Below, piece by piece: positions 2,429 to 29,397 of a DNA stretch of 31,581 nucleotides. This DNA is from a virus. How positions within the stretch are numbered: the first letter of the stretch is position 1; each line of letters begins with the position of its first letter. The stretch is taken from UHGV virus genome UHGV-1546770. One strand, given 5' to 3'. The notes below the pieces were generated by a model that ran no database searches, was not told where the DNA came from, and worked only from the letters and a program-made list of their open reading frames with translations. The translations under genes and the position numbers were made by a program.

Positions 2429-2602
2429 AATTCATAATCTCCTTTTAGTGATTTTTAATTATTAACTATAATTATGTACTATCTAGCGTGTTTACATATT
2501 ACCACATTACTTGTCATATGTCAAGTCCATCTTGTGGTTTTTCTTTTTATGTATTCAAGCGGCTCAATCAATCAAGTTGGCTCTCTCTTGACTACATTCT
2601 GA

Positions 2603-2631
2603 ATTATACCACAATAATTTCGTATTGTCAA
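2603..2631 (-). promoter_or_regulatory. sigma70-type promoter, exact consensus TTGACA-N17-TATAAT
   Basis: Minus strand TTGACA atacgaaattattgtgg TATAAT; the -35 hexamer overlaps the TGA stop of the upstream gene. Confidence 0.6.
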
Positions 2632-2972
2632 GGGGTATTTTCAAGAATTTCTACTGGAGTTTCAAATACACGACTGTTTAGTGCAATCAGATCTGCTCTA
2701 AACATATCAATTCGCTTATCAAAAGCACTATAATACTTCTTCATAAGCTTTTCCTTTGCAAGCATCTTACCCTTCTCCTCGTCGTACACATCACCTTTCG
2801 CAAGCTTGACCTTGACCTTAAACTGCTTAGGCATCATGTACTTCTCACGAATCATATAACAGTCAAACTCATTGAGAAACTTATCAATCTTATTAATTGC
2901 ATCAAGCTCAGTTCCTCTTAGAACAGCGAACGTTTCCTTCGTGTTTGGGTTGCTATAATACTGAATAGCCAT
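2628..2972 (-). CDS. hypothetical protein (114 aa)
   Basis: Intact ORF in the co-directional series; preceded by tandem promoters at 3032-3060 and 3114-3142. Confidence 0.6.
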   Translation of the reverse strand: MAIQYYSNPNTKETFAVLRGTELDAINKIDKFLNEFDCYMIREKYMMPKQFKVKVKLAKGDVYDEEKGKMLAKEKLMKKYYSAFDKRIDMFRADLIALNSRVFETPVEILENTP

Positions 2973-3031
2973 TTTTTCTTTTGTCCTTTCTTTTTTAAAT
3001 AATTTTTTATTGTCTTTTGACTTATGCTTGA

Positions 3032-3060
3032 ATTATACCATATGTTTTTCTGTTTGTCAA
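3032..3060 (-). promoter_or_regulatory. sigma70-type promoter, exact consensus TTGACA-N17-TATAAT
   Basis: Minus strand TTGACA aacagaaaaacatatgg TATAAT; tandem with the 3114-3142 promoter. Confidence 0.6.
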
Positions 3061-3113
3061 TATCTTTTTTCGTTTTTTTGAATCACATATTGACTTCTTT
3101 CAACTATGCTTGG

Positions 3114-3142
3114 ATTATATCACAATAATTTCTGTTTGTCAA
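3114..3142 (-). promoter_or_regulatory. sigma70-type promoter, exact consensus with TGn extended -10
   Basis: Minus strand TTGACA aacagaaattattgtga TATAAT; -35 overlaps the TGA stop of the 3139-3669 gene. Confidence 0.6.
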
Positions 3143-3669
3143 GTGGCACTTTTTAAATATGCCCTACTATTCGCAAGTAATCCAAGTAATTTTACGGCTG
3201 TATTACAAATACAATCTCCATCTTGCCACCACATACACTTCTCCTCTGAACACATCAACGTTTTTGACGACGTTGCAGTATCAGAAAGACAATAGCATAG
3301 TGGACAGTATTTTTTATCTTCCATGTCCGTCACCTCACATAAAAAATCAAAACTATCCATGAACTCATTATATTGTTCTACACAGCGCTCAAGACATGGA
3401 AAGTTATTAACTTCTTTCTTATATTGTTTTCCATAAAACTGCATATATGGCTGTCCAAACTCTTCATCAAGCACTAGCACATTATCAAAGTCATTCCAGT
3501 CAGAGATATCGTTTTTAAAGCAAATACTTACACTCAGCGCATGGTCAATACTCTTTGTTACATACCACGCCGCATCATGATTAATCCAGCTTCCGCCTTC
3601 TCTAAAATGTGCTTCAATAAGCTGCTCTTTAGTTGGCACATACTTAAGTTTATAGCTTTTTGCTTTCAT
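3139..3669 (-). CDS. hypothetical Cys-rich protein (176 aa)
   Basis: Intact ORF; start ATG overlaps the stop of the upstream ORF; C-terminal CPLCYC and CMWWQDGDCIC motifs. Confidence 0.6.
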   Translation of the reverse strand: MKAKSYKLKYVPTKEQLIEAHFREGGSWINHDAAWYVTKSIDHALSVSICFKNDISDWNDFDNVLVLDEEFGQPYMQFYGKQYKKEVNNFPCLERCVEQYNEFMDSFDFLCEVTDMEDKKYCPLCYCLSDTATSSKTLMCSEEKCMWWQDGDCICNTAVKLLGLLANSRAYLKSAT

Positions 3670-3893
3670 TATTTCACCTCATCCATCTTCGCGCCACAGT
3701 TGTGGCAGTAATTATGCGTATATTCTTGAGGGCATCCGCAATCGTTGCACCTATACTTCCACGACAGCCATGTTGCGATTTGATTTATTGCGTTCCAATT
3801 TCGGCGGCTGTTTGAGCCAATCCTCAACACCGTGTAAACATTTATTGAAACATTTCGGTGATTCGCACTCATTGATTTCTGCACAGCACTCAC
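3669..3893 (-). CDS. hypothetical zinc-ribbon protein (start uncertain)
   Basis: C-terminal CNDCGC...CHNCG motif; stop overlaps the start of 3139-3669; no RBS seen before either candidate start; overlaps 3751-4080 in another frame. Confidence 0.3.
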   Translation of the reverse strand: MSAVQKSMSANHRNVSINVYTVLRIGSNSRRNWNAINQIATWLSWKYRCNDCGCPQEYTHNYCHNCGAKMDEVK

Positions 3894-4080
3894 AAACAGT
3901 GGTCATTGATGCAATCCATGCAGCTAATTCCTCATCGCTCATCGCCCGGATGTGGTCGGCGTTGGTTCGCTTTTTCCTCCGGTACTCGCAAAAAGAAGCT
4001 GTGCATTCTCCTCTGATAAAATAAGTGCAATTTGTTTCTGCTTCTTCTGGTGTTCCAGCACCACATGTGTACTTAATCAC
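3751..4080 (-). CDS. hypothetical Cys-rich protein (109 aa)
   Basis: GTG start preceded by AAGGAG; multiple Cys (CECCAEINECESPKC). Confidence 0.45.
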   Translation of the reverse strand: MIKYTCGAGTPEEAETNCTYFIRGECTASFCEYRRKKRTNADHIRAMSDEELAAWIASMTTVCECCAEINECESPKCFNKCLHGVEDWLKQPPKLERNKSNRNMAVVEV

Positions 4081-4312
4081 TTGTACGCTCCTTAATAAAT
4101 TTTTCCCTGATTGCTTCTTTCTCTGGGTCTTCGTATGATGTCTGCCAATACGCTTGCAGCCATTGGATATGCCTTATTTCTTCGTCAGATAGCAAGTACA
4201 GATGATCCAAAACAACCTGTCTGCGCTTGTATCGGTCTGGATGGGCGTTCCCTGCATAGATGCACTGGCAGCTTTCATACTCACAGATTGGACACTTAGC
4301 CATTGTCAGCAC
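4073..4312 (-). CDS. hypothetical zinc-ribbon protein (79 aa)
   Basis: N-terminal CPICEYESCQC motif; intact ORF in series. Confidence 0.5.
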   Translation of the reverse strand: MLTMAKCPICEYESCQCIYAGNAHPDRYKRRQVVLDHLYLLSDEEIRHIQWLQAYWQTSYEDPEKEAIREKFIKERTSD

Positions 4313-4562
4313 CTTCTTTCCGTTCTCCGTATGAGCAGAAATCGTTGTCCTCAGTCCAGTTAAATGACAGTCTCATAGGGCAAGGCGGCTTGTTATGGTA
4401 CTTGCACTCCCGACATCTGACCACTTCCACGGCATCCTTTTCCAATAGCAATGCCGCTTTTCCATAAACGGAATGCTCATATACTCCCGGTGTAAAATCA
4501 GCATCGTGAATCATTTTTAATGCCGTTGCTACCGTCCGTCTATCGGCATCAATCGGCCGCAT
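4296..4562 (-). CDS. hypothetical protein (88 aa)
   Basis: Intact ORF; CRECKYHNKPPCP motif; short overlap with neighbours. Confidence 0.55.
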   Translation of the reverse strand: MRPIDADRRTVATALKMIHDADFTPGVYEHSVYGKAALLLEKDAVEVVRCRECKYHNKPPCPMRLSFNWTEDNDFCSYGERKEGADNG

Positions 4563-4818
4563 CTATAATCTCCTCCAAACCTGCAATATGTTCAATCATC
4601 ATTTCTTTCGCAAACAATTCTCCTTTATGCAAGCATTCTCTCGCTTGAATAGATGCATCGACCAATTCATCAATAAGCTGCTTTAGGTTATTCGCATCAC
4701 TATACCCGTCATAATCGAAACCGATGTCCCATATAAATTGTAACCATTCATCTACACAATTTGGCTCACACATTTTACATCCTGTCTGTTCATCAATCCA
4801 ATATTTCATTTTATTCAC
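4549..4818 (-). CDS. hypothetical protein (89 aa)
   Basis: Intact ORF; CKMCEPNC motif. Confidence 0.55.
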   Translation of the reverse strand: MNKMKYWIDEQTGCKMCEPNCVDEWLQFIWDIGFDYDGYSDANNLKQLIDELVDASIQARECLHKGELFAKEMMIEHIAGLEEIIDAAD

Positions 4819-4834
4819 TCAAAATCCTTAGTTA

Positions 4835-5167
4835 TTATTTATCCTCTAACACCCAAATGTCACCGCGCTGCTCTACAATTTTATAATTCTCAACAACCTC
4901 GTTATAAGACACAGAATCATCAATAATACATTCGTATCGGTATTCACCGGTTTTAACAATACATGTTAAAATTCCACAAGTAACCATAATGGATAAACCA
5001 ATAATAAGAGAAGATGTAGTTGCCCAAACAGGCCCATCAAGGATCATAGACACAGCAAATACAATTAATCCAGTAACAAATATTATGAATGCCAATACTG
5101 ATACCCACGTGGGCAAACCAGTAACAGCCGTTTTATTTAATATAGTTATCCCTTCTACCATTCTCAT
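4835..5167 (-). CDS. hypothetical membrane protein (110 aa)
   Basis: Two hydrophobic stretches (VSVLAFIIFVTGLIVFAV, LIIGLSIMVTCGILTCIV) consistent with transmembrane helices. Confidence 0.6.
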   Translation of the reverse strand: MRMVEGITILNKTAVTGLPTWVSVLAFIIFVTGLIVFAVSMILDGPVWATTSSLIIGLSIMVTCGILTCIVKTGEYRYECIIDDSVSYNEVVENYKIVEQRGDIWVLEDK

Positions 5168-5397
5168 TCCTCCACAAAATATTGAATATACAATTGAATT
5201 ACATCACCTTCTGCCTCAATTCTCTCAGCTTCTTCAATTAATCCTTGCGCTTCCCAATATTTTTCCTGTTTAAATTTTTCTAACTGTTCACGAGTTGCTA
5301 ATTCTATTTCAGGATACTTCCTAAAGAGGTCAAGCAAATCTTCTTTTTGCCACCATGTGAGATTCGTAGATTCCATTTCTTTTCTAGTCATTACCAT
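5164..5397 (-). CDS. hypothetical protein (77 aa)
   Basis: 4-nt start/stop overlap with downstream gene; charged helical composition. Confidence 0.55.
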   Translation of the reverse strand: MVMTRKEMESTNLTWWQKEDLLDLFRKYPEIELATREQLEKFKQEKYWEAQGLIEEAERIEAEGDVIQLYIQYFVEE

Positions 5398-5687
5398 AAA
5401 TCCTCCGAATATAATTCACAGACAATCCTCTCTGCTAAATCATCGCATGCCGAACGCGCCACACTCCAATTCATTGCCTTTCTATGACAATCTTCGCAAT
5501 GATAATAAAAATTATCCGTATCGTCATATCGACAGCTATCACAATAAATATCATCGAATGCTTTATAAATAAGGTTGCTTATTGCCTCTTTATTCTTTTC
5601 AAGTTTTTTGACTGGTACTACTCTAACATATGAAGGACAACTATCGTCACAAAGAGCACAATGTCTACCATCTTCACATATCATCAT
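5391..5687 (-). CDS. hypothetical Cys-rich protein (98 aa)
   Basis: CALCDDSCP, CDSCRYDD and CEDCHRK motifs. Confidence 0.55.
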   Translation of the reverse strand: MMICEDGRHCALCDDSCPSYVRVVPVKKLEKNKEAISNLIYKAFDDIYCDSCRYDDTDNFYYHCEDCHRKAMNWSVARSACDDLAERIVCELYSEDLW

Positions 5688-5692
5688 TTTTA

Positions 5693-5950
5693 TTATTCTC
5701 CTTTTATCTCATATTTTTCTATTAGTTCGTTTAATTTACTTAAGCCATTCTTAGAAATTAAATCGTTTTCATAAAGGAAATCACATAATGCTTCAAGTTC
5801 AGAGACAGGGATGACCTCTATTGTAGGAAATTTATCAAGAAACGCTTTCTGCTTGAGGCAGTATTCTCTGATAACAGCAACATTCATATTTTCATTATCT
5901 TTATCAAATATGATTACTTGATTTACCACATCAGTATCAATTGGTCTCAT
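5693..5950 (-). CDS. hypothetical protein (85 aa)
   Basis: Intact ORF in series. Confidence 0.55.
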   Translation of the reverse strand: MRPIDTDVVNQVIIFDKDNENMNVAVIREYCLKQKAFLDKFPTIEVIPVSELEALCDFLYENDLISKNGLSKLNELIEKYEIKGE

Positions 5951-5965
5951 TTTATTTAGCCCTCC

Positions 5966-6235
5966 TCAAATCTTTCTCCCCAAACAATCAACTTCAACAA
6001 CATCATTGTCGAGCACATCTGTTTCATAAAGCATCTCTTCTAGCGCATGAAGCTCATCAAAATAATATGCAAGTTTCTTCTTTAGGTTTTCTATAGCTTC
6101 TTCTTTTGTTTCGCCATATCCATAAATATTTGTTAAGTCAAAATTATGATATCTATCAGCATCATTAAATAAATAACAAGTATGTGACTGAGACTTTTCC
6201 TTTCCATCATTATGATGTGCGATTTTCATTAACAT
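5966..6235 (-). CDS. hypothetical protein (89 aa; start trimmed from track ORF 5966-6298)
   Basis: Internal ATG at 6233-6235 preceded by AAAGGAG at about 6 nt; the longer track ORF would overlap 6210-6410 by 89 nt. Confidence 0.5.
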   Translation of the reverse strand: MLMKIAHHNDGKEKSQSHTCYLFNDADRYHNFDLTNIYGYGETKEEAIENLKKKLAYYFDELHALEEMLYETDVLDNDVVEVDCLGRKI

Positions 6236-6410: not shown

Positions 6411-6534
6411 TTATCTTACGCCTCTTTCGTAAAAAATAGATACATATAAGCCAATCCTTATATTCATTTGACATTTGTTGATTGCTCCTTTATAAATTTG
6501 TTGCCTTAATGTACTATAATTTTATACTGTAGCC

Positions 6535-8956: not shown

Positions 8957-10033
8957 TTACTGTGAAACTACTTCAAGAATCTGGTTTAGAATAGCAATAT
9001 CTGTAACCTTGGCGAACTGGTCTGGAAGTCCTGCTTCCTTTATGGCAGCACGTTTGGCTTTCTTGTCTTCAGGAGAAAGAGATGACAGAACTCCCTTAAT
9101 TTCTGCCTTAAGGTTCTTGCATTCTTCGTCTTTTCTAATTTCCACATCCAACTCGTCTGTTTCCATTAGATCCTCTTTATGTGAATTATAATAGTCTTCC
9201 TTTTCTTTTTTCTCCTGCTTTGATTTGCTCTCAATATATTCGTCTGTTGCGTCATGAGACTTAATAGAGTTCTTAATTGCATCCTTGACAGTATCAATAT
9301 AATTCTTTGCAGAAACTTCTACTCTGTCAGCAATATCTTCAAATCTACCACCTGCATCAATATATCCATTTCCACGAAAGTACATCCATCTGCTAACACC
9401 ATCTACATGCCCATCAGTAATTTCTCTTTCAATAACACCCATCATACAAATATCTGCCTTGTTAGCAAAAATCGAATCATAATCTGTTGAAAGATTAGAT
9501 GTAAGCATCTGGTATTCATCGCCATTTTTCTCTTTAATATCCTTAATCTTAGTGTGCCCAATAAACACTAGACAGTACCCACTAGATTCTAGTCTGGTAA
9601 TAACGGAATTAATTAGCTCATCCACTTTTCTACGCCCAGCTCCATAACCTCCAAAACACGCATTAAATTCATGCTTGGTGCCAGACTTCTTATAGTCAAG
9701 ACGCACAATTTCCTTTTGAGCCATAGAAATCCATTCGTCAACGGTATCAAATGCAATAATAGAAAACGAATTTTCGTCCTTATTTTCTACTAGTTCGTCA
9801 ACGACTTCCATTAGTGTAGCCCAATCTGGGCAATCAGCAACCATTAGATTGTCAATAGCAAGATAACCTCTCTCATTTCCACAGCTAATCAATAGGCCAT
9901 GACTCATGTCGCCATATAGTTCTTTAATTAAATTTGCAAACAATGTAGTTTTGCCCCATTTTTTTGGTGCTCTCCAATAGTGGCGATAGTTAGTAATATC
10001 TACTGTTACCTCATTTTTCTTCCATAAAGCCAT
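8957..10033 (-). CDS. P-loop ATPase, RecA-like (Sak4/AAA_24-like)
   Basis: Walker A APKKWGKTT, Walker B-like SIIAFDTVDEW, and LVFIGHTK motif; K/E-rich C-terminal extension. Confidence 0.5.
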   Translation of the reverse strand: MALWKKNEVTVDITNYRHYWRAPKKWGKTTLFANLIKELYGDMSHGLLISCGNERGYLAIDNLMVADCPDWATLMEVVDELVENKDENSFSIIAFDTVDEWISMAQKEIVRLDYKKSGTKHEFNACFGGYGAGRRKVDELINSVITRLESSGYCLVFIGHTKIKDIKEKNGDEYQMLTSNLSTDYDSIFANKADICMMGVIEREITDGHVDGVSRWMYFRGNGYIDAGGRFEDIADRVEVSAKNYIDTVKDAIKNSIKSHDATDEYIESKSKQEKKEKEDYYNSHKEDLMETDELDVEIRKDEECKNLKAEIKGVLSSLSPEDKKAKRAAIKEAGLPDQFAKVTDIAILNQILEVVSQ

Positions 10034-10040: not shown

Positions 10041-11051
10041 TCAGTCTCCTTTACCTTTTAAACTATTTATATATCTATCTAACTCTTCTTGTGTGATATA
10101 TCCTTTTTCAATTGCATCTTCCGCATACAACCAATGCAATGCCTCGCCTGTTTGTGGATGTTTATACGTATAATTTTGTTTACCTCTACAGCACTTTGTA
10201 ATAGAGCTTGGATCACATCCATATAAATTTTGTACTTCTTTTGCTCCCCAAAAAATTTGATTTAATTCTATACAATATATTCTTCTACATTTCCACCAAT
10301 TACTACCTTTACGAGAATCACTCATCTTTTTCTTTGCTTCTTCTGTGTGATGTTTCCCATACATTGGATGATTGCTTGGATTTATAAATCTTTCTTTTGC
10401 TTTTTCTGATAGATTTAATTTTTGTTCATCTGACAATTTTTTACCTAAACTGGGATGTTGTTTTCCTATCCATATATGTTTGCCTTTAGTTGTTGGATTT
10501 GCCCAATATAATTTATGTTTTTCATACCATTGTTTATATGTTTCTTCATCCATGCGTTCTTTTGGAGAAACTTTAAACTGTGGATTATTCTCGCCTACTA
10601 ATCCTGCTCTTCCATACATTGGATGATTATTTGGATCTGAAAGTCTTTCTTTTGCAGCTTTTGATATCTTTTTTCTTGTTTCTTTACTTGGAGTCCATCC
10701 TTGCGTTGTTCCTCCACCATAAACAAGATTATACCAATTGTTAGATTCAACAGCATTAAAGAAAACACTATAATTATATTCCATTTCATTTAATTCTTCT
10801 GCAGAATAAGCAATATCAATTACATTTCTTACAAAATTTTCTTTTCCATATTTGTCAATTGCTTGTTTAAATGCTGCACCACTACCAAGATATTCTTGCC
10901 AATTTCCATAGAATTTTCTTTGGCCTAAATATCTTTTGCCATCAATCAAATTCGTTGTGATATAAATAAATCCATATGGATCTTTTACTTCCGTATATGT
11001 TGTATCTTGTAGCCCATCAACGGAAGAATTCATTTCTTTTAATTCTTCCAT
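10041..11051 (-). CDS. GIY-YIG homing endonuclease with NUMOD3 repeats and NUMOD1-like HTH
   Basis: N-terminal YGFIYITTNLIDGKRYLGQ (GIY-YIG), repeated NHPMYG...K..S motifs, C-terminal ELNQIFWGAKEVQNLYGCDPSSITKCCRGK helix-turn-helix. Confidence 0.7.
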   Translation of the reverse strand: MEELKEMNSSVDGLQDTTYTEVKDPYGFIYITTNLIDGKRYLGQRKFYGNWQEYLGSGAAFKQAIDKYGKENFVRNVIDIAYSAEELNEMEYNYSVFFNAVESNNWYNLVYGGGTTQGWTPSKETRKKISKAAKERLSDPNNHPMYGRAGLVGENNPQFKVSPKERMDEETYKQWYEKHKLYWANPTTKGKHIWIGKQHPSLGKKLSDEQKLNLSEKAKERFINPSNHPMYGKHHTEEAKKKMSDSRKGSNWWKCRRIYCIELNQIFWGAKEVQNLYGCDPSSITKCCRGKQNYTYKHPQTGEALHWLYAEDAIEKGYITQEELDRYINSLKGKGD

Positions 11052-11124
11052 CTATTATCACTTCGCTGTCTATAATTTAGTATTGTCTAGGGAAGCTTTA
11101 ATTCTTCCCTAGACTTATGGATTC

Positions 11125-12201
11125 TTACCATGGCTCATCTTCGTCGTCAGATTCATCGTCGCCCCAATCATCATCCACATTGGATGTTGACTCTGCCTTA
11201 CCAGTGAAATCCTGTTCTGCTTTCTTTGATGCATTTACCTTCTTAATTGCCTCATCAATTGCCTTTTCAGTATATGTTTCTTTGTCAATAGTTGATGGCT
11301 TTGCACCTGTAATAATAAGTTCTCGATGAGTCGGTGCAAAAACTCTCTTATTGTCCATATCATTAGATTCGCCCCAGCAATCATCGTCTTCCTCATCATT
11401 CACGTCTTCAACATTATTAACAACATTGATGTGTCCATGAACCTGAATGGAATTATAAGGCTTTAGCCCACTACGCATCTGCTTTGCGAGTTTTGCATCT
11501 TCAATAATAAATTCAGCAGACTCAATAGAGTTATAATTCACAATCTTTGCATCTACCACAAATCGACCAGTTGGCTTGTCGTTTTCTCTTTCCTGATCAA
11601 TACCAACAAAAACAATTGTCTGCGTAAAATCATGAGCGGGAGCATAATCCTCCGCCTCAAAGTCAACATCATTCTGACATAGAGAAATTTGTGTTGGGAC
11701 AAACTTTGTGGTACGAGAGACTTCCCCATCTTTGTTAGTATAACTGCCAAATTCTAGATTTCCTTTAACAAAAACAGAATCACCATCCTGAAGATTCTCG
11801 CTAATGTATTCACATGCGTCATACTCAGTAAGCGTCTTGTTGTCGTTTCTTACCTTTCCGTTTTCGTCCTTGATCTTCTGAAGTCCAGTAAGCACACCAA
11901 TCATACGATAGCCTTCAGGAGCCTTCTTAATTCTGTCTTTCCATGCAATTGCCTTTGTATCAGTATTGCCAGTGTCTTTATCCTTCTTACTAAAATACAC
12001 CTTGTCACGCGGCATACCATTAAGCGTTGGGAAAATTGTCTTCTTGTCATCATACTCCACGCCAAAATTAATCATTCTGAACTCTTTGCCAGTTCTTGTC
12101 TGCTTTTCTACGTAGAAACTATCCTTTTCTACTCCGCTTACAATTCCTCTAACCTGAAAAGTTCCCTTGGTTTGTGGAAGTTCAAAAAGTTTGTTTGCCA
12201 T
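11125..12201 (-). CDS. putative ssDNA-binding protein (358 aa) with acidic C-terminal tail
   Basis: C-terminus DDDWGDDESDDEDEPW (acidic tail ending in an aromatic residue, as in SSB/gp2.5-type proteins); lies in the replication module. Confidence 0.4.
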   Translation of the reverse strand: MANKLFELPQTKGTFQVRGIVSGVEKDSFYVEKQTRTGKEFRMINFGVEYDDKKTIFPTLNGMPRDKVYFSKKDKDTGNTDTKAIAWKDRIKKAPEGYRMIGVLTGLQKIKDENGKVRNDNKTLTEYDACEYISENLQDGDSVFVKGNLEFGSYTNKDGEVSRTTKFVPTQISLCQNDVDFEAEDYAPAHDFTQTIVFVGIDQERENDKPTGRFVVDAKIVNYNSIESAEFIIEDAKLAKQMRSGLKPYNSIQVHGHINVVNNVEDVNDEEDDDCWGESNDMDNKRVFAPTHRELIITGAKPSTIDKETYTEKAIDEAIKKVNASKKAEQDFTGKAESTSNVDDDWGDDESDDEDEPW

Positions 12202-12253
12202 ATTTTATTAGTCTCCTTTTCCTATAATTTTGTATTGTTTAATAAAATAAAAA

Positions 12254-12463: not shown

Positions 12464-12532
12464 TCATCATTCATCCCCCTTTCTCAACAATTGAAAAGAC
12501 TATAATTTTATATTACATCTCATTACGATTGC

Positions 12533-12561
12533 ATTATACCATAACAATTGCGTCTTGTCAA
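12533..12561 (-). promoter_or_regulatory. sigma70-type promoter, exact consensus TTGACA-N17-TATAAT
   Basis: Minus strand TTGACA agacgcaattgttatgg TATAAT. Confidence 0.6.
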
Positions 12562-12735
12562 GTTTTTTATCGAAGATCGAAAAATTTTGTATTTCACTTT
12601 TACTTTATATTAATTCGCTGCTGATTATTGCGCAATTTCCATTTAACTCGATATTCGCAATTCCATTGTTCTTTTATTTTTTGTACCAATCATAACGTAT
12701 TGTGATTCTTACATTATAAATTTTTCGCTTATTTT

Positions 12736-12764
12736 ATTATACAGTACAAAATTATCATTGTCAA
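12736..12764 (-). promoter_or_regulatory. sigma70-type promoter, exact consensus TTGACA-N17-TATAAT
   Basis: Minus strand TTGACA atgataattttgtactg TATAAT, immediately downstream of the recombinase stop codon. Confidence 0.6.
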
Positions 12765-12770
12765 ATCTTA

Positions 12771-13745
12771 TTAAACCATATCATCCAAAATATTCGCGGC
12801 TTGCTGCTTTTTGTCTTTAGACATATTTGCATATCTCATAGTAGTAGCAATATTTTTATGATTAAGAACTGACGCACAAAGATAAATATCTCCAGTCTTT
12901 TCGTACAAATTAGTTGCACAAGAATGTCTCAACACATGTGGTGTAACATGCTTACTTGTCACATCCTTACTATATTTTTCTAGCATCACCCTAATGCCGT
13001 CTCTTGTAATTCTCTTTTTAAAGCTAGAAATAAACAAGGCATCTGTATTCGCCATGCTAAAATATTTGTTTCTATCCTGTAGCCACAATTCTAGCTGCTT
13101 CTTTACTCTATCGCCAAATAGAATATTACATGTTTTTCCTCTTTTTTCGATTACCTTAATAGTATTATTTTCGAAATCAATATCACCAATATCAATTTGC
13201 GTGATTGCAGATACACGCAACCCAGTAGTTAGTCCAAGCATAATAATGGCTAGATCCCTATTTTTCATCTTTTTGCTTGCAAGCTTATCAACATTTTCAA
13301 GAATCATTTGCATTTCTTTTTCTGTTAAATAAGCAACATCTGGTGTATCTTGCACTTTAGGACGTTCTGTTCTCTCCATTGGATTTTCTTTAATATAATC
13401 ATTTTCTTTAAGGAACCCAAAAAACGTATTCAATGCAGACCACTTTGTCGCACGAATACTATCACTTGTATTATAATGTCCATTGATAGTTTCTTTATTC
13501 TTCAATGCGGCAAAATATTTATTAATATCCAAAGGTGTTACCTTTTTATAAAAATCATTTGAGATTCTATTTTCATTAATAAATTCTGCAAATTCCTTCA
13601 CATATGCTACATATCTCTCAACTGTTGTATAAGATTTAGTTATACACATATAATAATAAAATTCAGAAAAAATTTTAGGAAGTCCTGTTAATTTTGCCTG
13701 CATCTTATTTGTAGCAACAATTTCCTTTTCCATTCTTCCTGTCAT
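12771..13745 (-). CDS. tyrosine recombinase / integrase (XerC/XerD-like)
   Basis: Catalytic-domain motifs TGLRVSA (Arg), HVLRHSCAT (His-x-x-Arg-His) and TMRYANM (Tyr) in the expected order. Confidence 0.85.
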   Translation of the reverse strand: MTGRMEKEIVATNKMQAKLTGLPKIFSEFYYYMCITKSYTTVERYVAYVKEFAEFINENRISNDFYKKVTPLDINKYFAALKNKETINGHYNTSDSIRATKWSALNTFFGFLKENDYIKENPMERTERPKVQDTPDVAYLTEKEMQMILENVDKLASKKMKNRDLAIIMLGLTTGLRVSAITQIDIGDIDFENNTIKVIEKRGKTCNILFGDRVKKQLELWLQDRNKYFSMANTDALFISSFKKRITRDGIRVMLEKYSKDVTSKHVTPHVLRHSCATNLYEKTGDIYLCASVLNHKNIATTMRYANMSKDKKQQAANILDDMV

Positions 13746-14509: not shown

Positions 14510-14538
14510 ATTATAACGCTATAATTTTGTTTTGTCAA
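14510..14538 (-). promoter_or_regulatory. sigma70-type promoter, exact consensus TTGACA-N17-TATAAT
   Basis: Minus strand TTGACA aaacaaaattatagcgt TATAAT; -35 overlaps the TGA stop of the methyltransferase gene. Confidence 0.6.
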
Positions 14539-15780: not shown

Positions 15781-16158
15781 TTATTTTACAAGTTTAACTC
15801 CAGATGATAATTTATAAGCACTTTCTTTTTTCTTCTTGGGAATTAAAATTGTATTTTGTCCTGCTATAAATTTGATATCTCCTCTGTGTGATAACAATTC
15901 TTTTGTAAGTTTAATGATGTGAGATGTTTGTGCTGCATTCATGTCTGCCATACCAATTATATGATACAAATCATCTTTCACAAACTTATCCATTTCGCTA
16001 ACTGCTGTTCTGCAAGACAAAATTGATTCATTAAGATCTTTTATTGTCATCTTACTTGTATCACGTGCATTTAAATTATACTTCGACAAGATAGTTTCAC
16101 ACTGCTCTATCTGCTTAGAAATATTTTCTACTATAATTTGATATTCTGAGTGCCTCAT
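15781..16158 (-). CDS. hypothetical protein (125 aa)
   Basis: Intact ORF in series. Confidence 0.5.
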   Translation of the reverse strand: MRHSEYQIIVENISKQIEQCETILSKYNLNARDTSKMTIKDLNESILSCRTAVSEMDKFVKDDLYHIIGMADMNAAQTSHIIKLTKELLSHRGDIKFIAGQNTILIPKKKKESAYKLSSGVKLVK

Positions 16159-17284: not shown

Positions 17285-17312
17285 ATTATATAATAATTTT
17301 ATATTCTGTTAA
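17285..17312 (-). promoter_or_regulatory. sigma70-type promoter (TTAACA-N16-TATAAT)
   Basis: Minus strand TTAACA gaatataaaattatta TATAAT directly after the terminator hairpin. Confidence 0.35.
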
Positions 17313-18477: not shown

Positions 18478-18966
18478 TTACTCATCCTCCTCAAGAATCC
18501 AGTCATATCCAAGCCATTTAATTTCATCATCAGAAAAACCAATCGCATACACATCTCTACGAGCAATTTCAAGTTCTACATTTCCATTGTCTGTACAATA
18601 ATCAATTGCATTTTGGAGCAATTCCATGGCTCTTTTATGTGTAATATATCCCAAATTATTTGTCTTGTCTGGAATGATTTCATTTCCATCCTCGTCTTCA
18701 TCGCCTTCAACCCACCAAGACTCCCACATATTATAGGTCTCACTTAGACGTTCCATCATAAACTCTTCACAGCAAGAATCTTCAACATATGCTCTATAAT
18801 CAGGATCTTCAATTTCTTCTGTGCTATGCCATTCATAATAATATCCATCCAGCATATCAAGGATCTCTTTTTCGAGATATTTATATGCATCATCCCATTT
18901 AATGCACAATTCTCTTTCAAAACAATTTACAAAATATCGTGTAATCATATTATTTGCTCCTTTCAC
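18478..18966 (-). CDS. hypothetical acidic protein (162 aa)
   Basis: Intact ORF, acidic and Trp/Tyr-rich. Confidence 0.55.
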   Translation of the reverse strand: MKGANNMITRYFVNCFERELCIKWDDAYKYLEKEILDMLDGYYYEWHSTEEIEDPDYRAYVEDSCCEEFMMERLSETYNMWESWWVEGDEDEDGNEIIPDKTNNLGYITHKRAMELLQNAIDYCTDNGNVELEIARRDVYAIGFSDDEIKWLGYDWILEEDE

Positions 18967-19162
18967 TCTTAATAAATGCTTTCTTTGCTTCTACATCCAA
19001 CAGTTCACCACATGGTTTATATGGATCGTGCTTAATGCACTCAATATCTTTAAGCATCAGTTCAAATGCATCCTTGTGGCTTTTCCCTTGCTTCATCCAG
19101 AAGTTGTAACACTCTTGCGAGAATTGATTTAATATTTCCATTGTGTTTTCTTTACTCAACAT
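18950..19162 (-). CDS. hypothetical protein (70 aa)
   Basis: Intact ORF; AGAAAGGAGATTAATAA before the ATG. Confidence 0.5.
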   Translation of the reverse strand: MLSKENTMEILNQFSQECYNFWMKQGKSHKDAFELMLKDIECIKHDPYKPCGELLDVEAKKAFIKSERSK

Positions 19163-19180
19163 TTATTAATCTCCTTTCTA

Positions 19181-19212
19181 TTTTATAAAAGGGGCTTTGT
19201 TCAAGCCCCTTT
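19181..19212 (-). terminator. putative intrinsic terminator or attenuator hairpin
   Basis: Perfect 10-bp inverted repeat AAAGGGGCTT/AAGCCCCTTT with 5-nt loop, followed on the minus strand by TATAAAAT. Confidence 0.45.
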
Positions 19213-19231
19213 AAGAATAATTTTGTATTGT

Positions 19232-20587: not shown

Positions 20588-20788
20588 TTAAATTGTAATC
20601 ACAAGACAATCCCATCCGTCAAAGTCAATGCAAGATGAAATTCTATTAACTTCTATTTCTCCATATTCCTGCATAATATATTCGATAAACCATTTGTCAA
20701 CGTCTTTGTTCTTTTTACAATCATAGATAATTGCCGTTTGAATCCGCTCTCTGCTACACAGGATAGATTTAAGTTCTTTTAGTTTCAT
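20588..20788 (-). CDS. hypothetical protein (66 aa)
   Basis: Intact ORF in series. Confidence 0.45.
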   Translation of the reverse strand: MKLKELKSILCSRERIQTAIIYDCKKNKDVDKWFIEYIMQEYGEIEVNRISSCIDFDGWDCLVITI

Positions 20789-20815
20789 TTGCCGACTTCT
20801 TTAATTTTGTTTTGT

Positions 20816-21905: not shown

Positions 21906-22217
21906 TTAATTTTCTTCAGAACAAATATCCATGATTGTATCAACCAAATTCTGCAAAGAATTCACTCCATACCCATGTAGCAGAATCATTAACTCTCCAG
22001 TTTCATGATTTCTCAGTTCACAACAATGTGTCCATCCATCTTCATCAAGATAATCGAAAGAAATGTCAAGTTCGTTTCCGTTAATAGAATTAATGTCATA
22101 AGTCACAATCCTTGTGTCAAAAGATTTCGGTCTTCTTCCTCCCCCATTCCAATTAGTAGGATTCATTTTATCCAAAAAATCATTTGCAATTTTTTCTGTC
22201 TTTTCTCTGTTGAACAA
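21906..22217 (-). CDS. hypothetical protein (103 aa)
   Basis: Intact ORF in series. Confidence 0.5.
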   Translation of the reverse strand: MFNREKTEKIANDFLDKMNPTNWNGGGRRPKSFDTRIVTYDINSINGNELDISFDYLDEDGWTHCCELRNHETGELMILLHGYGVNSLQNLVDTIMDICSEEN

Positions 22218-22253
22218 AATTAAATCCTCATTTAATTTTATATCGTTTAATAA

Positions 22254-23762: not shown

Positions 23763-23994
23763 AATTCTTATCTCCTTTAACAAAATACATATTGATTCTT
23801 GCTTTTCTTGCTTTTCTTTTTTTCTTTTTTGCCGCACGCTGTTTCCAAACAGGATGGTCTGGGTACATTTCAAAACAATCACATTGTTTTTGCAAGCATC
23901 TTTTTCGTTCTACTTGATTCCATGTCGCTCCCTTGTCATGAAAATGGCAGTAACCACACACATTGTCGCTTTCTGACCCATACAAGCAAAGCAT
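23746..23994 (-). CDS. hypothetical zinc-ribbon protein with basic tail (82 aa)
   Basis: AAAAGGAGG RBS; CGYCHFHD...CDCF motifs and a KKKKRKARKAR stretch; 17-nt overlap with the downstream gene. Confidence 0.5.
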   Translation of the reverse strand: MLCLYGSESDNVCGYCHFHDKGATWNQVERKRCLQKQCDCFEMYPDHPVWKQRAAKKKKRKARKARINMYFVKGDKNYGSLH

Positions 23995-24105
23995 TATATA
24001 CCTCCTTTTCTTTGCAATATTTTTGTATTGTATAAGACAAGGTGCAAAAGCCTCATCTTCCTTAACGACTCTTATATCAAGAACAGATGTTTCTTATAAA
24101 TCATT

Positions 24106-25295: not shown

Positions 25296-25622
25296 TTATT
25301 TCTCCTCAATAATAACTATATATTCGTTTCCGTTATCCTCAAAACCATACTCTCCATTAAGTGTATCTGCACAATCAAGTACACATACTTCGTATCCATC
25401 TTTGTTAAAAAGTACGGGATCACAGAAGAAATTGTTTTGTCCACTACAAATTTTAATATCTGCAAAATGTCCATCTGCAAACTGTGCTGTAAAACACTCG
25501 ATAGTGGAGTCTTCGTCATACCCAGCATTGATGACACCATCGTCTTCGGACGGCATATCAAGCAAAATATTATATTTGTCAATTTCATTTTTGTCGATCT
25601 TAATGGTTGAAATGAATTTCAT
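25296..25622 (-). CDS. hypothetical protein (108 aa)
   Basis: Intact ORF; translation checked by hand against the supplied track. Confidence 0.55.
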   Translation of the reverse strand: MKFISTIKIDKNEIDKYNILLDMPSEDDGVINAGYDEDSTIECFTAQFADGHFADIKICSGQNNFFCDPVLFNKDGYEVCVLDCADTLNGEYGFEDNGNEYIVIIEEK

Positions 25623-25668
25623 TTTTATTCCTCTTTAATTTCTTTTACATTAAAGCCGTTATGACAAT

Positions 25669-25806
25669 TTAGATTTTTACCAGCGTGTCGGCAAGCTGGA
25701 TAGCAATACCTAAGATTGTTAAAATGAGAACAATAATCCCGTCTTTCCTGTCGTCATCTCCGAATAGCAGTACACAAGCAATGATGATAAGCAAAATAGC
25801 AATCAT
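25669..25806 (-). CDS. small single-pass membrane peptide (~45 aa; start trimmed from track ORF 25669-25893)
   Basis: Internal ATG preceded by GGAG; sequence MIAILLIIIACVLLFG...ILTILGIAIQLADTLVKI is almost entirely hydrophobic. Confidence 0.45.
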   Translation of the reverse strand: MIAILLIIIACVLLFGDDDRKDGIIVLILTILGIAIQLADTLVKI

Positions 25807-25951
25807 TTGTTTTACTCCATATACTTTTGTATTGTTTATTGTTTTTGTATTAATTTTCCATGTTATATTCGCATTTTTTGATAGTGGCTTCATTTACATT
25901 GCAAACTATACTGCTCAAAATTGAAATTATATTTTGCGTTCTATATACGCA

Positions 25952-26095
25952 TTAAATGATGCCACATGAACTTGCAATCATTGCAATAATTGCAAGGAAC
26001 AAGATGCCTCCGAGCAAGCTCCCGATACCAGATTTGGTAGCATCTTTTCCAAAAAGCAGTACACAAACAATAATGATTAGCAGAATAACAATCAT
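25952..26095 (-). CDS. small membrane peptide (~47 aa), paralog of 25669-25806; below the ORF-track cutoff
   Basis: GGAGGTAAAATCA before the ATG; MIVILLIIIVCVLLFGKDATKSG... resembles the neighbouring peptide; coordinates hand-counted. Confidence 0.4.
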   Translation of the reverse strand: MIVILLIIIVCVLLFGKDATKSGIGSLLGGILFLAIIAMIASSCGII

Positions 26096-26116
26096 TGATT
26101 TTACCTCCTTTTTTTA

Positions 26117-27067
26117 TTAATAATACTTGTATGCATCTTTGTCAACATTTACGTCAGTGATATCTCCATATGTGATATCAGAATGTGCCATCAAGAATCT
26201 ACCAATTGCCTCTTCCATTGAATATGCGTCCGTGTCGTACCACTCTGTGTTTCCGTTAGTGTTAACATACTCAATCAGATAATAGCCATAATTGTATTCT
26301 GGCTCATCACGATTATTGTCTTCAAGATATCTGTCAATGTCAAACAGAGAATCATATCGCACAGGTGCTTCCACATAATCGAATTTGTCATTCTCCGTTG
26401 TGCGCTCAAGGATTTTACATGCCTCCTTAATGCTTCTTTCCATTTCAGAAAGAATGACATATTCACTTTTTGTATGTGCTTTGTAATAACCACAAGAAAG
26501 ATTCACTGCTGCACAACCAAGAGCGGGAGCGATTTCACAGATATCAGAATAAGATCCATACGCTGTTTTATAAAATTCCTTTGTAATAAAGTCCTCGAAC
26601 TCATCATTTGCACAGGAATAAAACACTGCATCATTTGCGTTGGCACGATCAAATTCAATGATGTAATTGAACTCAAGATTTCTTGCCAGCTCAGAGTCTG
26701 CAAACTTACTTGAGCCTACGCAACCAACCTCTTCGTCCTCGCAGAACAGAACAGAGCAGTTAAACTTTTCAAGAATCTTGAAAATCATATAGACACCGCA
26801 TCTATCGTCGCCTCCGATTCCGTTAGGGCTTGAAACTTTATTGTTCTTTTTACTATACATGAACATATTAGGAAGCTTTTCATGCACAGTATCAAGATGT
26901 GCAACCAGCAGCACAGGAAATTTCCCTTGTGCATATACATACCCATCTCTGTTAAGAACTGTTCCATGAGTCTTTTGCAGCTTCTGTCTAACATGATTCT
27001 TTAGACTTGCTTGAGACATCTTGCAAATTTTTTCAAACTCTTTATTCATAATTGATTTTACCTCCAT
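26117..27067 (-). CDS. putative co-catalytic zinc metallopeptidase-like protein (316 aa)
   Basis: Ordered motifs VLLVAHLDTVHE, GIGGDDRCGV and FCEDEEVGCVGS resemble the His/Asp, Asp-Asp and Glu-Glu metal-ligand blocks of M20/M28/M42-type enzymes; assignment from motif memory only. Confidence 0.45.
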   Translation of the reverse strand: MEVKSIMNKEFEKICKMSQASLKNHVRQKLQKTHGTVLNRDGYVYAQGKFPVLLVAHLDTVHEKLPNMFMYSKKNNKVSSPNGIGGDDRCGVYMIFKILEKFNCSVLFCEDEEVGCVGSSKFADSELARNLEFNYIIEFDRANANDAVFYSCANDEFEDFITKEFYKTAYGSYSDICEIAPALGCAAVNLSCGYYKAHTKSEYVILSEMERSIKEACKILERTTENDKFDYVEAPVRYDSLFDIDRYLEDNNRDEPEYNYGYYLIEYVNTNGNTEWYDTDAYSMEEAIGRFLMAHSDITYGDITDVNVDKDAYKYY

Positions 27068-28869
27068 TAAACCGCTTCATCAATGTCTGTTTCATTCTCA
27101 AGAATTTCTCTCAGGCAATCTTCGCAGTACATCTTTCCTTTGTGTTCTCTCAAATTGTTGTTTCTAAAACATTCTCCACACTCTTCACAGCAACTATAAT
27201 AATAATCACAACAATCGTCGCACACATATTCATCCTGAGATTCAATATAGTTCATACACTCTCTTGGATAATATTCTCCACATTCCGCGCAATACTCATA
27301 ATATTCGTCTCTGCAATTTTCACAGACACAAATTTCATAGCCTCTTGAATTATGAACATATGTCCCTTCGCCAACGTAATATTCATCACAGTCATTGCAA
27401 TGGAAAACACAATCTCCACAATAAGGCTCTCCGTCAATATAGATGGCATCATCTTCATCGACATATTCGCCGCATGCAGCACATTTAACTCCGTGATGAC
27501 AGCAAGAAATATTGTCGTCGCAATCATGCTCATAACCACATTCGATGCAAATTGGTGTATGTCCAACAGTAATGCAATTCTCGTTGTCGTTTCCTTTAGG
27601 ACGGCTAAGAGTGCAATTTCCAAAGTTGTCGTAATCTCTATAATGAGTACCTTCAGACTCAATATATCTGCCTGCTTCGCTAGTTCCCTTACTCACAGTC
27701 CAGAAGTTCGGGAAATCAAAAATTTCAGACATGATTTTCTGAACAATTGCTCTGAAAGCGGTGTAGCCGGTGCTGCATCCATCATTGTCTTGCGGATAAA
27801 GTCTGCCCTGAATCAGTTTGTCTTCTCCCCAGTGATACATCTGACGGTTAATCTTTGGCTCATTCCAGAAATCGTTTCCATCATAAGATGCATCCACAGT
27901 GTAAAACACCATAGAAGGAGAATCGAGCATATAACTAATAGTACCAGAAGAATACATTCCCTGATAACTATTAGGCATGCCTCTTTTGTTTTGCTTATCA
28001 ATTGTATGACAGCTCGCCCAGCTATTGCCAAAGCTCATTGTGAGATAATCAAGAGGATTCACAGAAAGAATAGTATGCCTTGTAATCTTGAGCGGATTGA
28101 GCGCGTCAGCATACTTTGCGAATTCCCTATTGTACTCAGGATGCTTGCTAATACCAATGTAAGCAAGAAGCTTATTGATAACACGACTCGTCTTCTGCCC
28201 GTCATGTGCATGAATTTCAGGACAAATTCTGTTTAGCTCATCAGCAAGTTCGCTATCAATATACTGAGAAGTATAGGCTGGAATTCTAATCAAGAAAGCA
28301 AAGATATTTGTTGGGTATTTCTGTCCATTCAGTGAAGTTTCTTTCTTCATGCTTTCGGGCATAAAATTATTTTCTTTTACATATTCGACCACATCACCAT
28401 CAATCACCCATGACTTGAATCTCTCCAATGCATTACGATCAGTTACACGTTCAAAATCATGGCTAAATACAATCATGAATTTGCCTTCCAGATAGTTCGG
28501 ATGCTTCTTAAATGCGGCAATCAGGTCTTTCTTGTTATTCGCCCATGTGTCAATGATTTTGTTCAGTGCCCTGTCCGTATATTCATAGTCATATTCATCA
28601 AGCAAGTTTTCCATCTGGTCAAGAAGAATTTCTCTTTCTTCTTCAGTGATAATATTACTTACATCCATTTTACTTTCTCCTTCCTTTTCATCAAGCAAAT
28701 CAAAGTATTGCGCATCTACCCAATAGCCTTCGCCGTTTATGTTTTTAACAAAAATGTTGTCGTCAGTATATTTACTAATCTCTACAACACGCCCTCTCCA
28801 ACCGTTTGTTGTGATGCCATAAGGAGCACCACGCTGTGCAATTACTCTATCACCAAGTTTAAATTTCAT
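27067..28869 (-). CDS. large hypothetical protein (600 aa) with C-terminal tandem zinc-ribbon array
   Basis: Longest ORF in the window; C-terminal ~150 aa contain at least 8 CxxC pairs in repeated units (CAACGEYV, CNDCDEYY, CENCRDEYY, CAECGEYY, CEECGEC); plus-strand ORF 27352-28236 is its shadow. Confidence 0.65.
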   Translation of the reverse strand: MKFKLGDRVIAQRGAPYGITTNGWRGRVVEISKYTDDNIFVKNINGEGYWVDAQYFDLLDEKEGESKMDVSNIITEEEREILLDQMENLLDEYDYEYTDRALNKIIDTWANNKKDLIAAFKKHPNYLEGKFMIVFSHDFERVTDRNALERFKSWVIDGDVVEYVKENNFMPESMKKETSLNGQKYPTNIFAFLIRIPAYTSQYIDSELADELNRICPEIHAHDGQKTSRVINKLLAYIGISKHPEYNREFAKYADALNPLKITRHTILSVNPLDYLTMSFGNSWASCHTIDKQNKRGMPNSYQGMYSSGTISYMLDSPSMVFYTVDASYDGNDFWNEPKINRQMYHWGEDKLIQGRLYPQDNDGCSTGYTAFRAIVQKIMSEIFDFPNFWTVSKGTSEAGRYIESEGTHYRDYDNFGNCTLSRPKGNDNENCITVGHTPICIECGYEHDCDDNISCCHHGVKCAACGEYVDEDDAIYIDGEPYCGDCVFHCNDCDEYYVGEGTYVHNSRGYEICVCENCRDEYYEYCAECGEYYPRECMNYIESQDEYVCDDCCDYYYSCCEECGECFRNNNLREHKGKMYCEDCLREILENETDIDEAV

Positions 28870-28884
28870 TTTCTATTTCCTCCT

Positions 28885-29343
28885 TTATCCGACCAATGCA
28901 CTGTAGCATCTGTCAAATCTTTCTTTATAGCTGTTAAGCTCTTCCTGAAGCTCTCTGTTCTTGAACTGAAGCATAGTCTTTTCCGTTTCAAGCTCGTCAT
29001 TTCTCATCATGGCAGCATCGTAATCTTCTCTTGACACACCGTTCCGTTTCATTTCAATGATACTTGCGGAAATAGCGGCTACATTATAGCCCATTTCAGA
29101 AATGTAACAGAACTGCTTTCCATTTCCTGTGTGATTATGTGAAGTGCCACCACAAGTTTTCTGTCTTCCAGCAATCTGATTAAGAAGGGACGAATAACTA
29201 ATGCCATAACAATTAGCCGCATCACGTGCCGACTTGAACACCTCACCAGTCGTGATGCACATGACCGCTTTTCCTTTGTGGATGTCTTTGTTTTCTGGGA
29301 TGATGTCGTACTTTGCGCGGCTAACAATAACGTTCTTTTTCAT
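28885..29343 (-). CDS. NUMOD1-like HTH DNA-binding protein with C-terminal coiled coil (152 aa)
   Basis: KAVMCITTGEVFKSARDAANCYGISYSSLLNQIAGRQKTCGG resembles the NUMOD1 module of homing endonucleases; no nuclease motif seen. Confidence 0.45.
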   Translation of the reverse strand: MKKNVIVSRAKYDIIPENKDIHKGKAVMCITTGEVFKSARDAANCYGISYSSLLNQIAGRQKTCGGTSHNHTGNGKQFCYISEMGYNVAAISASIIEMKRNGVSREDYDAAMMRNDELETEKTMLQFKNRELQEELNSYKERFDRCYSALVG

Positions 29344-29397
29344 GATGTAAATTCCCTTTCTGCCTTATAAGGCTATAATTTTGTGATGTATTCCTCT

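Follow-up and report, generated by a model that had tools for sequence, protein, structure and literature searches.

The window analysed here, a stretch of 31,581 nucleotides (nt) from the virus genome UHGV-1546770, carries at many of its gene junctions a short repeated element that begins with ACAATAC on the coding strand. This element is probably the operator of a master repressor of the MrpR/YopR type, that is, the counterpart in this lineage of the repeated element of the Bacillus prophage SPβ (SPBRE). The initial annotation had listed four readings without choosing among them, and the evidence favours the one in which a regulator binds the element. What argues for an MrpR-type operator is the SPβ-like setting of the window, the match of the element to SPBRE, its association with promoters, the presence of an mrpR-like gene in relatives, the signs of selection on the copies, and the dissociation of such arrays from the phage polymerase in Geobacillus virus E3. 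The best reading is that of a known control system in a fresh example, with an unusually dense, partly intra-operon array and a natural repressor-deletion variant.

The window contains 17 minus-strand copies of ACAATACAAAATTAT[A/T]G, in the orientation of the coding strand, and one inverted copy, when scanned with a weight matrix at a score of at least 12. A search for CTATAATTTTGTATTGT with up to three mismatches returned 15 matches where 0.39 are expected, a number reached by none of 100 shuffles; 14 of these lie on the plus strand, so that the element on the minus strand reads ACAATACAAAATTATAG. Each of the nine positions listed in the initial annotation holds a copy, within 1 nt on either side (2466, 6514, 11070, 12222, 12500, 14519, 19215, 24015 and 29373), and the weight matrix built from the matches adds copies at 2612, 2997, 3123, 16131, 17291, 20799, 22230 and 25819. 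A form with one T less, CTATAATTTGTATTGT, is not enriched in the window (one match versus 1.19 expected), which points to a fixed length of the element. Intergenic DNA makes up 13.4% of the window, yet it holds 16 of the 17 minus-strand copies (binomial p = 1.6e-13); the window has no plausible gene on the plus strand. The sole copy in coding sequence is a weak one (AGAATATCAAATTATAG, 16131-16147, minus strand), just inside the start of the open reading frame (ORF) 15781-16158.

The same element recurs in the 21-kilobase (kb) loci of 25 related IMG/VR contigs, 330 times in gene orientation and 35 times inverted. Across these relatives its invariant core is ACAATACAAAATTAT, followed by A or T and then by G, T or A, and contigs that are more distant also retain the exact 15-mer. 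Variation is seen at the 3' end (TATAG, TATTG, TATTT, TATAA, TATTA) next to the fixed ACAATACAAAATTAT; the TATAG that had been taken for the shared core is in fact the least conserved part of the motif. Structurally, ACAATA-CAAAAT-TAT[T/A]G(T) forms an imperfect inverted repeat whose left arm is well kept and whose right arm is looser. The TATTGT form makes the repeat perfect (ACAATA-CAAAAT-TATTGT), and the other forms keep four or five of the six right-arm bases.

The copies occupy three kinds of context. In the first, the motif fills the spacer of a sigma-A promoter, in the arrangement TTG-ACAATACAAAATTATTG-TGn-TATAAT, so that the motif begins with the ACA of TTGACA. Four minus-strand copies of the window belong here. 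Those at 2612-2628 (ACAATACGAAATTATTG) and 14519-14535 (ACAAAACAAAATTATAG) cover the 3' half of the -35 and the spacer of promoters with 12 of 12 consensus positions (2631-2603 and 14538-14510, respectively); the second of these had already been recognised as the spacer of a consensus promoter. A weaker copy at 3123-3139 (ACAAACAGAAATTATTG) sits in the spacer of the consensus promoter 3142-3114, and the copy at 17291-17307 (AGAATATAAAATTATTA) in that of the promoter 17312-17285 (TTAACA-16-TATAAT). In the second context, the motif starts 4-18 nt past the -10 and lies over the expected start site and the early leader. This is the case of the minus-strand copies at 2466-2482 (ATAGTACATAATTATAG), in the leader of gene 1772-2428, where the -10 of the sigma-A promoter 2524-2496 lies 13 nt upstream; at 2997-3013 (ACAATAAAAAATTATTT), which begins 18 nt past the -10 of the consensus promoter 3060-3032; at 6514-6530 (ACAGTATAAAATTATAG), which follows the -10 of the promoter 6562-6535 by 4 nt and spans the expected transcription start; and at 12500-12516 (GTAATATAAAATTATAG), where the consensus promoter 12561-12533 has its -10 at 16 nt upstream of the motif. 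The orthologous copy of the 2466 site reads ACAGTACAAAATTATAG in 24 relatives. Not one of the window's eight strong intergenic sigma-A promoters is without a copy, which lies between the -35 and about +40 in one or the other of these two arrangements.

In the third context there is no strong promoter, and the copy lies in a short gap between a stop codon and a ribosome-binding site (RBS), which it often abuts (...TTATT-GGAGG...). Eight minus-strand copies of the window are of this kind. A perfect copy at 12222-12238, identical in 27 relatives, precedes by 4 nt the RBS of the gene for a protein resembling single-stranded DNA-binding proteins (SSB-like; 11125-12201). The copy at 11070-11086 (ACAATACTAAATTATAG) lies 18 nt before the ATG of a GIY-YIG endonuclease gene and is preceded by a strong hairpin of 11 base pairs (bp) without a T run (11087-11115, minus strand; fold z-score -5). 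At 19215-19231 (ACAATACAAAATTATTC), upstream of gene 18950-19162, the element stands between a stop codon and an intrinsic terminator hairpin and abuts both; the terminator (19165-19214, minus strand) has the form GGGGCTT...AAGCCCC plus a T run. The copy at 20799-20815 (ACAAAACAAAATTAAAG) has a stop codon on one side and the ATG at 20788 on the other. A weak copy at 22230-22246 (ACGATATAAAATTAAAT) abuts the RBS of gene 21906-22217, and that at 25819-25835 (ACAATACAAAAGTATAT) the RBS of a small ORF. The copies at 24015-24031 (ACAATACAAAAATATTG, which reads ACAATACAAAATTATTG in relatives) and 29373-29389 (ACATCACAAAATTATAG) precede their start codons by 20 nt (ATG at 23994) and 29 nt (ATG at 29343), respectively. 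Several copies, that at 19215 included, are followed directly by an intrinsic terminator. Motif-hairpin pairs of a similar kind are also seen in relatives (L047:9798, L068:1040, L142:10055).

Taken over the window and the family loci, 469 motif sites collapse into about 115 distinct, non-redundant contexts, with 25 copies in spacers, 18 just after a -10 and 72 without a strong promoter, a class set by a strict rule that also takes in a few promoters in shifted register. A Shine-Dalgarno-like sequence lies within 12 nt in 48 of these 72 promoter-less contexts. The start codon follows the motif at a distance of 10-56 nt; the placement 10-40 nt upstream of an RBS given in the initial annotation was correct. 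In relatives, the motif is also found beside structural genes (e.g., after a capsid-like gene) and before a polymerase gene. The possibility that the motif itself supplies a sigma-A -10 (AATTAT, TATAGN or TACAAA) was considered and rejected, as either the key T at -7 has not been retained or transcription would start past the RBS. The early promoters form a repeat family of 45 nt, from the -35 to about +15, represented in the window at 2587-2631, 3016-3060, 3098-3142 and 12517-12561; the identity of these cassettes to a reference copy, 64-78%, suggests that early promoters may have spread by duplication.

A repeated element of SPβ, SPBRE, was reportedly described by Lazarevic in 1999. Its consensus, as extracted from the SPβ record, is (T)AGACAAATACAAATAATATGTATATAAT. 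SPBRE provides a -35-like hexamer together with the spacer and the first bases of the -10 at yonP, yorZ, yosX and yorE; it immediately precedes a promoter at aimR and yonT; and at yopV, yopM and the second yonX copy it abuts the RBS, just past the promoter. The good SPBRE copies in SPβ are all co-oriented with the genes. It has been established by ten peaks of chromatin affinity purification sequencing (ChAP-seq), a 15-bp MEME motif and electrophoretic mobility shift assays that SPBRE is the binding site of the SPβ protein MrpR (YopR) (Kohm et al. 2023, PMC10516654). This master repressor has the fold of a tyrosine recombinase and no recombinase activity (PMC10516654).

The family motif is likened to SPBRE because both occur in the same contexts and follow the same rule of orientation. 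Both are AT-rich repeats of 15-20 bp, partly palindromic and gene-oriented, that lie in the -35 and spacer, just past the promoter or at the RBS, and they can be aligned as ACAA(A)TACAAA...TGT. Their global alignment contains 16 identities and three gaps of 1 nt, and 0.1% of 20,000 composition-preserving shuffles score as well; since both sequences are AT-rich, this alignment counts as supportive only. Moreover, the promoter of the polymerase operon carries a copy in both phages, at yonP (yonP-yonO) in SPβ and at L112:11192 in a relative. There are also differences. The sequence is another one, and the array is denser, with 17 copies in 31.5 kb against about 13 good copies in the 134 kb of SPβ. 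Unlike in SPβ, most copies are promoter-less and intra-operon, some of them in the structural gene region; the mrpR-like gene of the relatives has its own promoter with an inverted copy; and the repressor gene is missing from the window. The YonO-dependent late operon of SPβ opens with yonK, and directly ahead of this gene a site reading AAATAGAAAATTATTGGAGG (L177 7150-7185, minus strand) matches the family motif plus RBS at 18 of 21 positions. This site is not among the reported MrpR ChAP-seq peaks (PMC10516654).

What the window covers is the early and replication region of a siphophage of the SPβ-like kind, and the proteins encoded there include a DnaB-like helicase, a Sak4-like ATPase, a GIY-YIG homing endonuclease, an SSB-like protein and a tyrosine integrase, together with about 50 small proteins without assigned function. 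A megablast search with 10 kb of the window against GenBank phages returned no match and no cultured relative; at the protein level the closest phages are Geobacillus virus E3 and then large siphophages of Bacillus and Lactococcus. The 25 IMG/VR contigs used as relatives are 90-160 kb long and encode an SSB-like protein 80-91% identical to that of the window. The phage is a large, uncultured one of a Gram-positive host. Its lineage is a distant SPβ-like one with a YonO-type two-barrel RNA polymerase, since relatives encode a YonO homologue and SPβ replication ORFs match family loci (RecJ, PolIII-alpha, helicase and YonJ exonuclease, among others). The SPβ-like architecture present in the lineage comprises the YonO polymerase, a YopP-like integrase and a replication module of Sak4, helicase, RecJ and PolIII, and the neighbourhood of the repressor gene is also shared with SPβ, in that the MrpR homologue of the relatives adjoins the YopP-like integrase.

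This homologue was found by tblastn with YopR as an ORF of 306 amino acids (aa) located directly after the YopP/XerD-like integrase gene (e.g., L025:7298-8218). The protein matches the Pfam domain MrpR_N_CB with 47.7 bits (cut-off 27), the solved MrpR/YopR structures (PDB 8a0a) with an E-value of 2e-10 and, over its full length, the related chain 9rd5 with an E-value of 2e-14. The mrpR-like gene is present beside the integrase gene in 24 of the 25 relatives, where its promoter reads TTGACA-gggataattttgtactg-TACAAT and contains the motif inverted within the spacer, an arrangement that fits autoregulation. In the window, this inverted copy is retained (ACAGTACAAAATTATCA, 12741-12757, plus strand) in the spacer of the consensus promoter 12764-12736. 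The gene itself gives no tblastn match within the 31.5-kb window, and its syntenic position is a deletion scar (12565-12735, minus strand) occupied by the decayed 3' remnant of an ORF of 103 aa that, like the mrpR-like gene, is present in 24 of the 25 relatives. The promoter left behind is joined to this remnant. Because the same junction is found in L005, which likewise has no mrpR-like gene, a single deletion common to both genomes is indicated. It removed about 1.2 kb, comprising the mrpR-like gene and the 5' part of the 103-aa ORF (window 12565-12770; L001 8211-9620; L005 9417-9620). This looks like a natural variant of the clear-plaque type, and the window's genome would probably be a repressor-less, virulent derivative. 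The tyrosine integrase of the window (YopP/XerD-like; 12771-13745, minus strand), whose orthologue is the upstream neighbour of the mrpR-like gene in relatives, was itself considered as an MrpR homologue and rejected: BLASTP against YopR gives an E-value of 1.5, and its catalytic motifs, of the RHRY type, are intact.

The conservation of the motif was compared in the presence and absence of the repressor gene at 13 window sites with orthologues, scoring each genome against the majority of each column, in the motif and in 60 nt on either side. In 23 repressor-positive relatives the motif is under more constraint than its flanks: pooled, motif columns deviate in 1.24% of cases and flanks in 2.97% (odds ratio 0.41, p 2e-10), figures to be read in the knowledge that the pooled genomes are not independent and that the flanks are partly coding. 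In the window there is no such difference, neither alone (4.4%, or 9 of 204, in motif columns versus 3.2% in flanks) nor together with L005 (3.4% versus 3.7%). Compared with the relatives, the window has 3.7 times more deviations in its motif columns (p 0.002), and the motif columns of the window plus L005 also show an excess (p 0.004); in the flanks, the window and the relatives are equal (p 0.63). Such a drift of the motif in the window is what the loss of its binding protein predicts.

A comparable array exists in Geobacillus virus E3 (NC_029073; L146-L148), where a co-oriented repeat particular to that phage, (T)TAAATAAAATATAA(T/A)AA, is present at up to one mismatch 37 times on the early strand and nine times in the late module. 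Its contexts are of the same three kinds and occur on both the early and the late gene strands. The E3 and family motifs give no significant alignment; what links them is their context and a common repressor family, not their sequence. The E3 protein GP146, annotated as an integrase, is a homologue of YopR (34% identity, E-value 1e-41), and this and similar genes are probable repressors. No YonO was found in E3 by tblastn. The product annotated there as a sigma factor, GP4, is encoded at the position that yonO has in SPβ; as a lead it was set aside, for it has no Pfam domain, carries only a PHROG name and has no homologue in the family loci examined. In Enterocloster phage PMBT24, YonO is present, no clear MrpR is found and no 12-mer is repeated more than five times. 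An MrpR homologue accompanies the element in SPβ, E3, the family and L032.

In the model that these data suggest, the MrpR-like protein would bind the element, and would probably do so as a dimer that contacts both arms, much as proteins of the recombinase fold bind their core sites. At the consensus sigma-A early promoters, the element has either of two positions. In one of them the left arm is fused to the -35 (TTG-ACA...) and the right arm reaches into the TRTG/-10 region, and in the other the element covers the transcription start and the early leader. By analogy with SPβ, for which both the binding of MrpR to SPBRE and repression have been demonstrated, the bound repressor would block the host RNA polymerase at these promoters and the prophage would stay silent. 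The intra-operon copies might serve as extra sites for repressor loading or as roadblocks, in a stoperator-like manner. The copies of the window itself would then be operators without a repressor, probably drifting since the deletion.

Stoperators are known from mycobacteriophage L5 and other Cluster A phages, whose repressor, gp71, recognises many asymmetric sites that lie in transcribed regions, in one orientation and near stop codons, besides a true operator at the early promoter. The likeness consists in scattered sites of one orientation in short intergenic gaps, combined with an operator at the early promoter. On the other hand, the repressor of L5 has a helix-turn-helix and that of the present system a recombinase fold, the host phylum and the sequence of the sites differ, and for the family motif a roadblock is only inferred.

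Several observations weigh against an MrpR-type operator. About 60% of the 115 non-redundant copies lack a strong promoter; since almost every mapped site of SPβ is at a promoter, the intra-operon copies require an extra assumption. The binding of a dimer does not need a strong strand bias. As for the protein, the MrpR homologue is only about 24% identical to YopR, a further difference from SPβ, and its match to MrpR_C_cat, with 25.9 bits, falls just under the Pfam cut-off of 27. The signal of relaxed constraint comes from one lineage with nine substitutions, the deviation in L005 alone (3 of 153) being not significant. Finally, the deletion also took part of the 103-aa ORF, whose product could be the partner that was lost.

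This last point leads to an explanation that we regard as unlikely, namely that the motif is bound by another phage protein: the co-deleted 103-aa protein, an HU/YonN-like protein (cf. TF1 of SPO1), or an activator of middle or late genes. The anatomy of the DNA (inverted repeat, overlap with promoters, inverted copy) would apply to such a protein just as well, the deletion hits two genes rather than one, and SPβ-like genomes encode HU-like proteins beside the polymerase gene. Nevertheless, MrpR and SPBRE provide a direct precedent and the element aligns with SPBRE, the accompanying gene from SPβ to L032 is an MrpR homologue, and the 103-aa protein has no recognisable DNA-binding domain.

Rather improbable is a second explanation, in which the motif is the promoter of the phage's own single-chain RNA polymerase of the YonO type, with the start at or just after the 3' end, so that each promoter-less copy would launch a short leader starting at the RBS. 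The initial annotation had proposed a search for a phage RNA polymerase or sigma factor, and the outcome of the former is divided: relatives encode a polymerase, which is of the YonO type, and none of the T7 type was found in the window or in the loci of relatives examined. The contig IMGVR_UViG_3300045988_120783, the same as that of L003, encodes at L112:8389-11082 (minus strand) an 897-aa two-barrel RNA polymerase of the YonO/QDE-1 type, with the Pfam domain RdRP (PF05183, E-value 8.5e-12) and the motif NGFDFDGD. By tblastn its closest cultured homologues are proteins of Clostridium phage c-st and of Enterocloster phages (38% identity), and it is 29% identical to SPβ YonO (E-value 2e-28). 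The gene lies just before the late module, upstream of those for a ClpP-like protease, PhoH, an exonuclease and the terminase, and is itself preceded by a sigma-A -10 and a motif copy. The 51 further ORFs of the window, compared with Pfam and PHROGs, yielded no sigma factor, polymerase or obvious regulator.

A YonO-type promoter would account for a contiguous element of 17 bp that is strictly strand-specific, lies 0-30 nt before the RBS and occurs in early, replication and structural regions; moreover, L133, a contig of another clade, has both the exact 15-mer and a polymerase fragment 35% identical. The promoter sequence recognised by YonO is not defined (Forrest et al. 2017, PMC5467207), and the late promoter of SPβ resembles the present case in that the same polymerase family occurs in the phage's relatives. 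In SPβ, a single YonO start site has been mapped, upstream of yonK (PMC5467207), and the late genes form one YonO operon, in contrast to the dozens of starts that the motif would imply. That start site (position 2225998 of B. subtilis 168) can be placed only as the interval between the primer-extension oligonucleotides (L177 8357-8552), and no SPBRE lies within it; the interval is more than 90% conserved by blastn in most SPβ-like phages, so that no footprint can be read from it. In SPβ it is MrpR that binds the homologous element, and transcription by YonO starts elsewhere. E3 has an equivalent array and no YonO by tblastn, and PMBT24 has YonO without an array of repeated 12-mers. The copies in sigma-A spacers, the conserved inverted copy and the several copies directly before an intrinsic terminator also argue against a promoter, and the presumed +1 is the most variable base. 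Were the 17-mer nonetheless such a promoter at dozens of junctions, its overlap with sigma-A promoters and MrpR sites would constitute a built-in switch from host to phage polymerase, a scenario to which we likewise give little credence.

The initial annotation had compared the element to promoters of single-subunit phage polymerases such as those of T7, T3 and SP6, which it resembles as a contiguous motif of about 17 bp that ends in TATAG, lies just upstream of genes and is strand-specific. This comparison finds no support, given that neither the 61 window proteins nor the loci of relatives examined contain a Pfam or PHROG match to a T7-type RNA polymerase, and given the same spacer, inverted and pre-terminator copies. 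A T7-like promoter was also rejected because it needs an invariant TATA and an initiating G, and the 3' end of the motif varies.

A role in the leader of the messenger RNA (mRNA), also among the readings first proposed, is very hard to sustain. The element would be a translational repressor or enhancer site, or the target of a processing nuclease 5' of the RBS, RegA-like or resembling start-associated sequences. The latter, known from Cluster K mycobacteriophages, are repeated strand-specific motifs directly upstream of translation starts. Strand specificity and the many promoter-less copies at or within about 10 nt of an RBS speak in favour of such a role. Unlike start-associated sequences, however, the motif keeps no fixed distance to the start codon, and roughly one copy in four occupies a promoter spacer, where it precedes the start site and is not transcribed from that promoter. 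Furthermore, one conserved copy has the opposite orientation, the sequence is palindromic as DNA, no consistent RNA fold is predicted (z near 0 without a neighbouring hairpin) and there is no Rfam match; the homologous SPBRE copies next to an RBS are ChAP-seq peaks on DNA (PMC10516654).

That the copies are functionless relics of a duplicated promoter cassette is scarcely credible: the early promoters do form a 45-nt repeat family that includes the motif, but the promoter-less copies have kept the 17-mer without the TTG or the -10, they vary less than their flanks in the 23 repressor-positive relatives, and the 15-mer is preserved exactly in distant contigs.

Other features of these genomes deserve mention. 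Homing endonuclease genes are variably present among relatives. In L010, L014, L025, L020 and L021 (about 9006-9965) one is inserted exactly between a motif copy and the RBS of the SSB-like gene; the window instead has its GIY-YIG gene (10041-11051) between the SSB-like and Sak4-like genes. At its low-coordinate end, ARAGORN predicts a cluster of seven transfer RNA (tRNA) genes (2-1290, minus strand); several are long (85-91 nt), and their anticodon calls are unusual (Tyr-ATA, Ile-TAT). Only four tRNAs in this cluster are supported by Rfam, which adds one at 1072-1145 that is absent from the ARAGORN list. Inside the cluster, between the tRNA-Ile and the next tRNA, lies a full-length Rfam match to the skipping-rope RNA (RF02924; 246-325, minus strand; 77.9 bits versus a gathering score of 36.7). 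The 62-nt starts of two neighbouring small ORFs (25754-25815 and 26043-26104) are 82% identical and encode hydrophobic N-termini, and these ORFs appear to be a tandem duplication of a gene for a small membrane protein.

If the element is indeed an operator of the MrpR type, the logic of MrpR and SPBRE, in which a master repressor derived from a recombinase reads a repeated operator built into early promoters, would extend from one Bacillus prophage to a large clade of uncultured phages of about 150 kb and to E3. The analysis yields a concrete candidate pair, the DNA ACAATA-N6-TATTGT (candidate operator ACAATACAAAATTATTGTG) and the 306-aa protein, and a natural experiment in which the repressor gene has been lost and the operators are apparently drifting. 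It also bears on annotation, as genes such as that of the E3 integrase GP146 would become probable repressor genes. In addition, the distribution of the copies suggests that operators of this kind may not be confined to promoters and may also sit scattered within operons, in the manner of stoperators.

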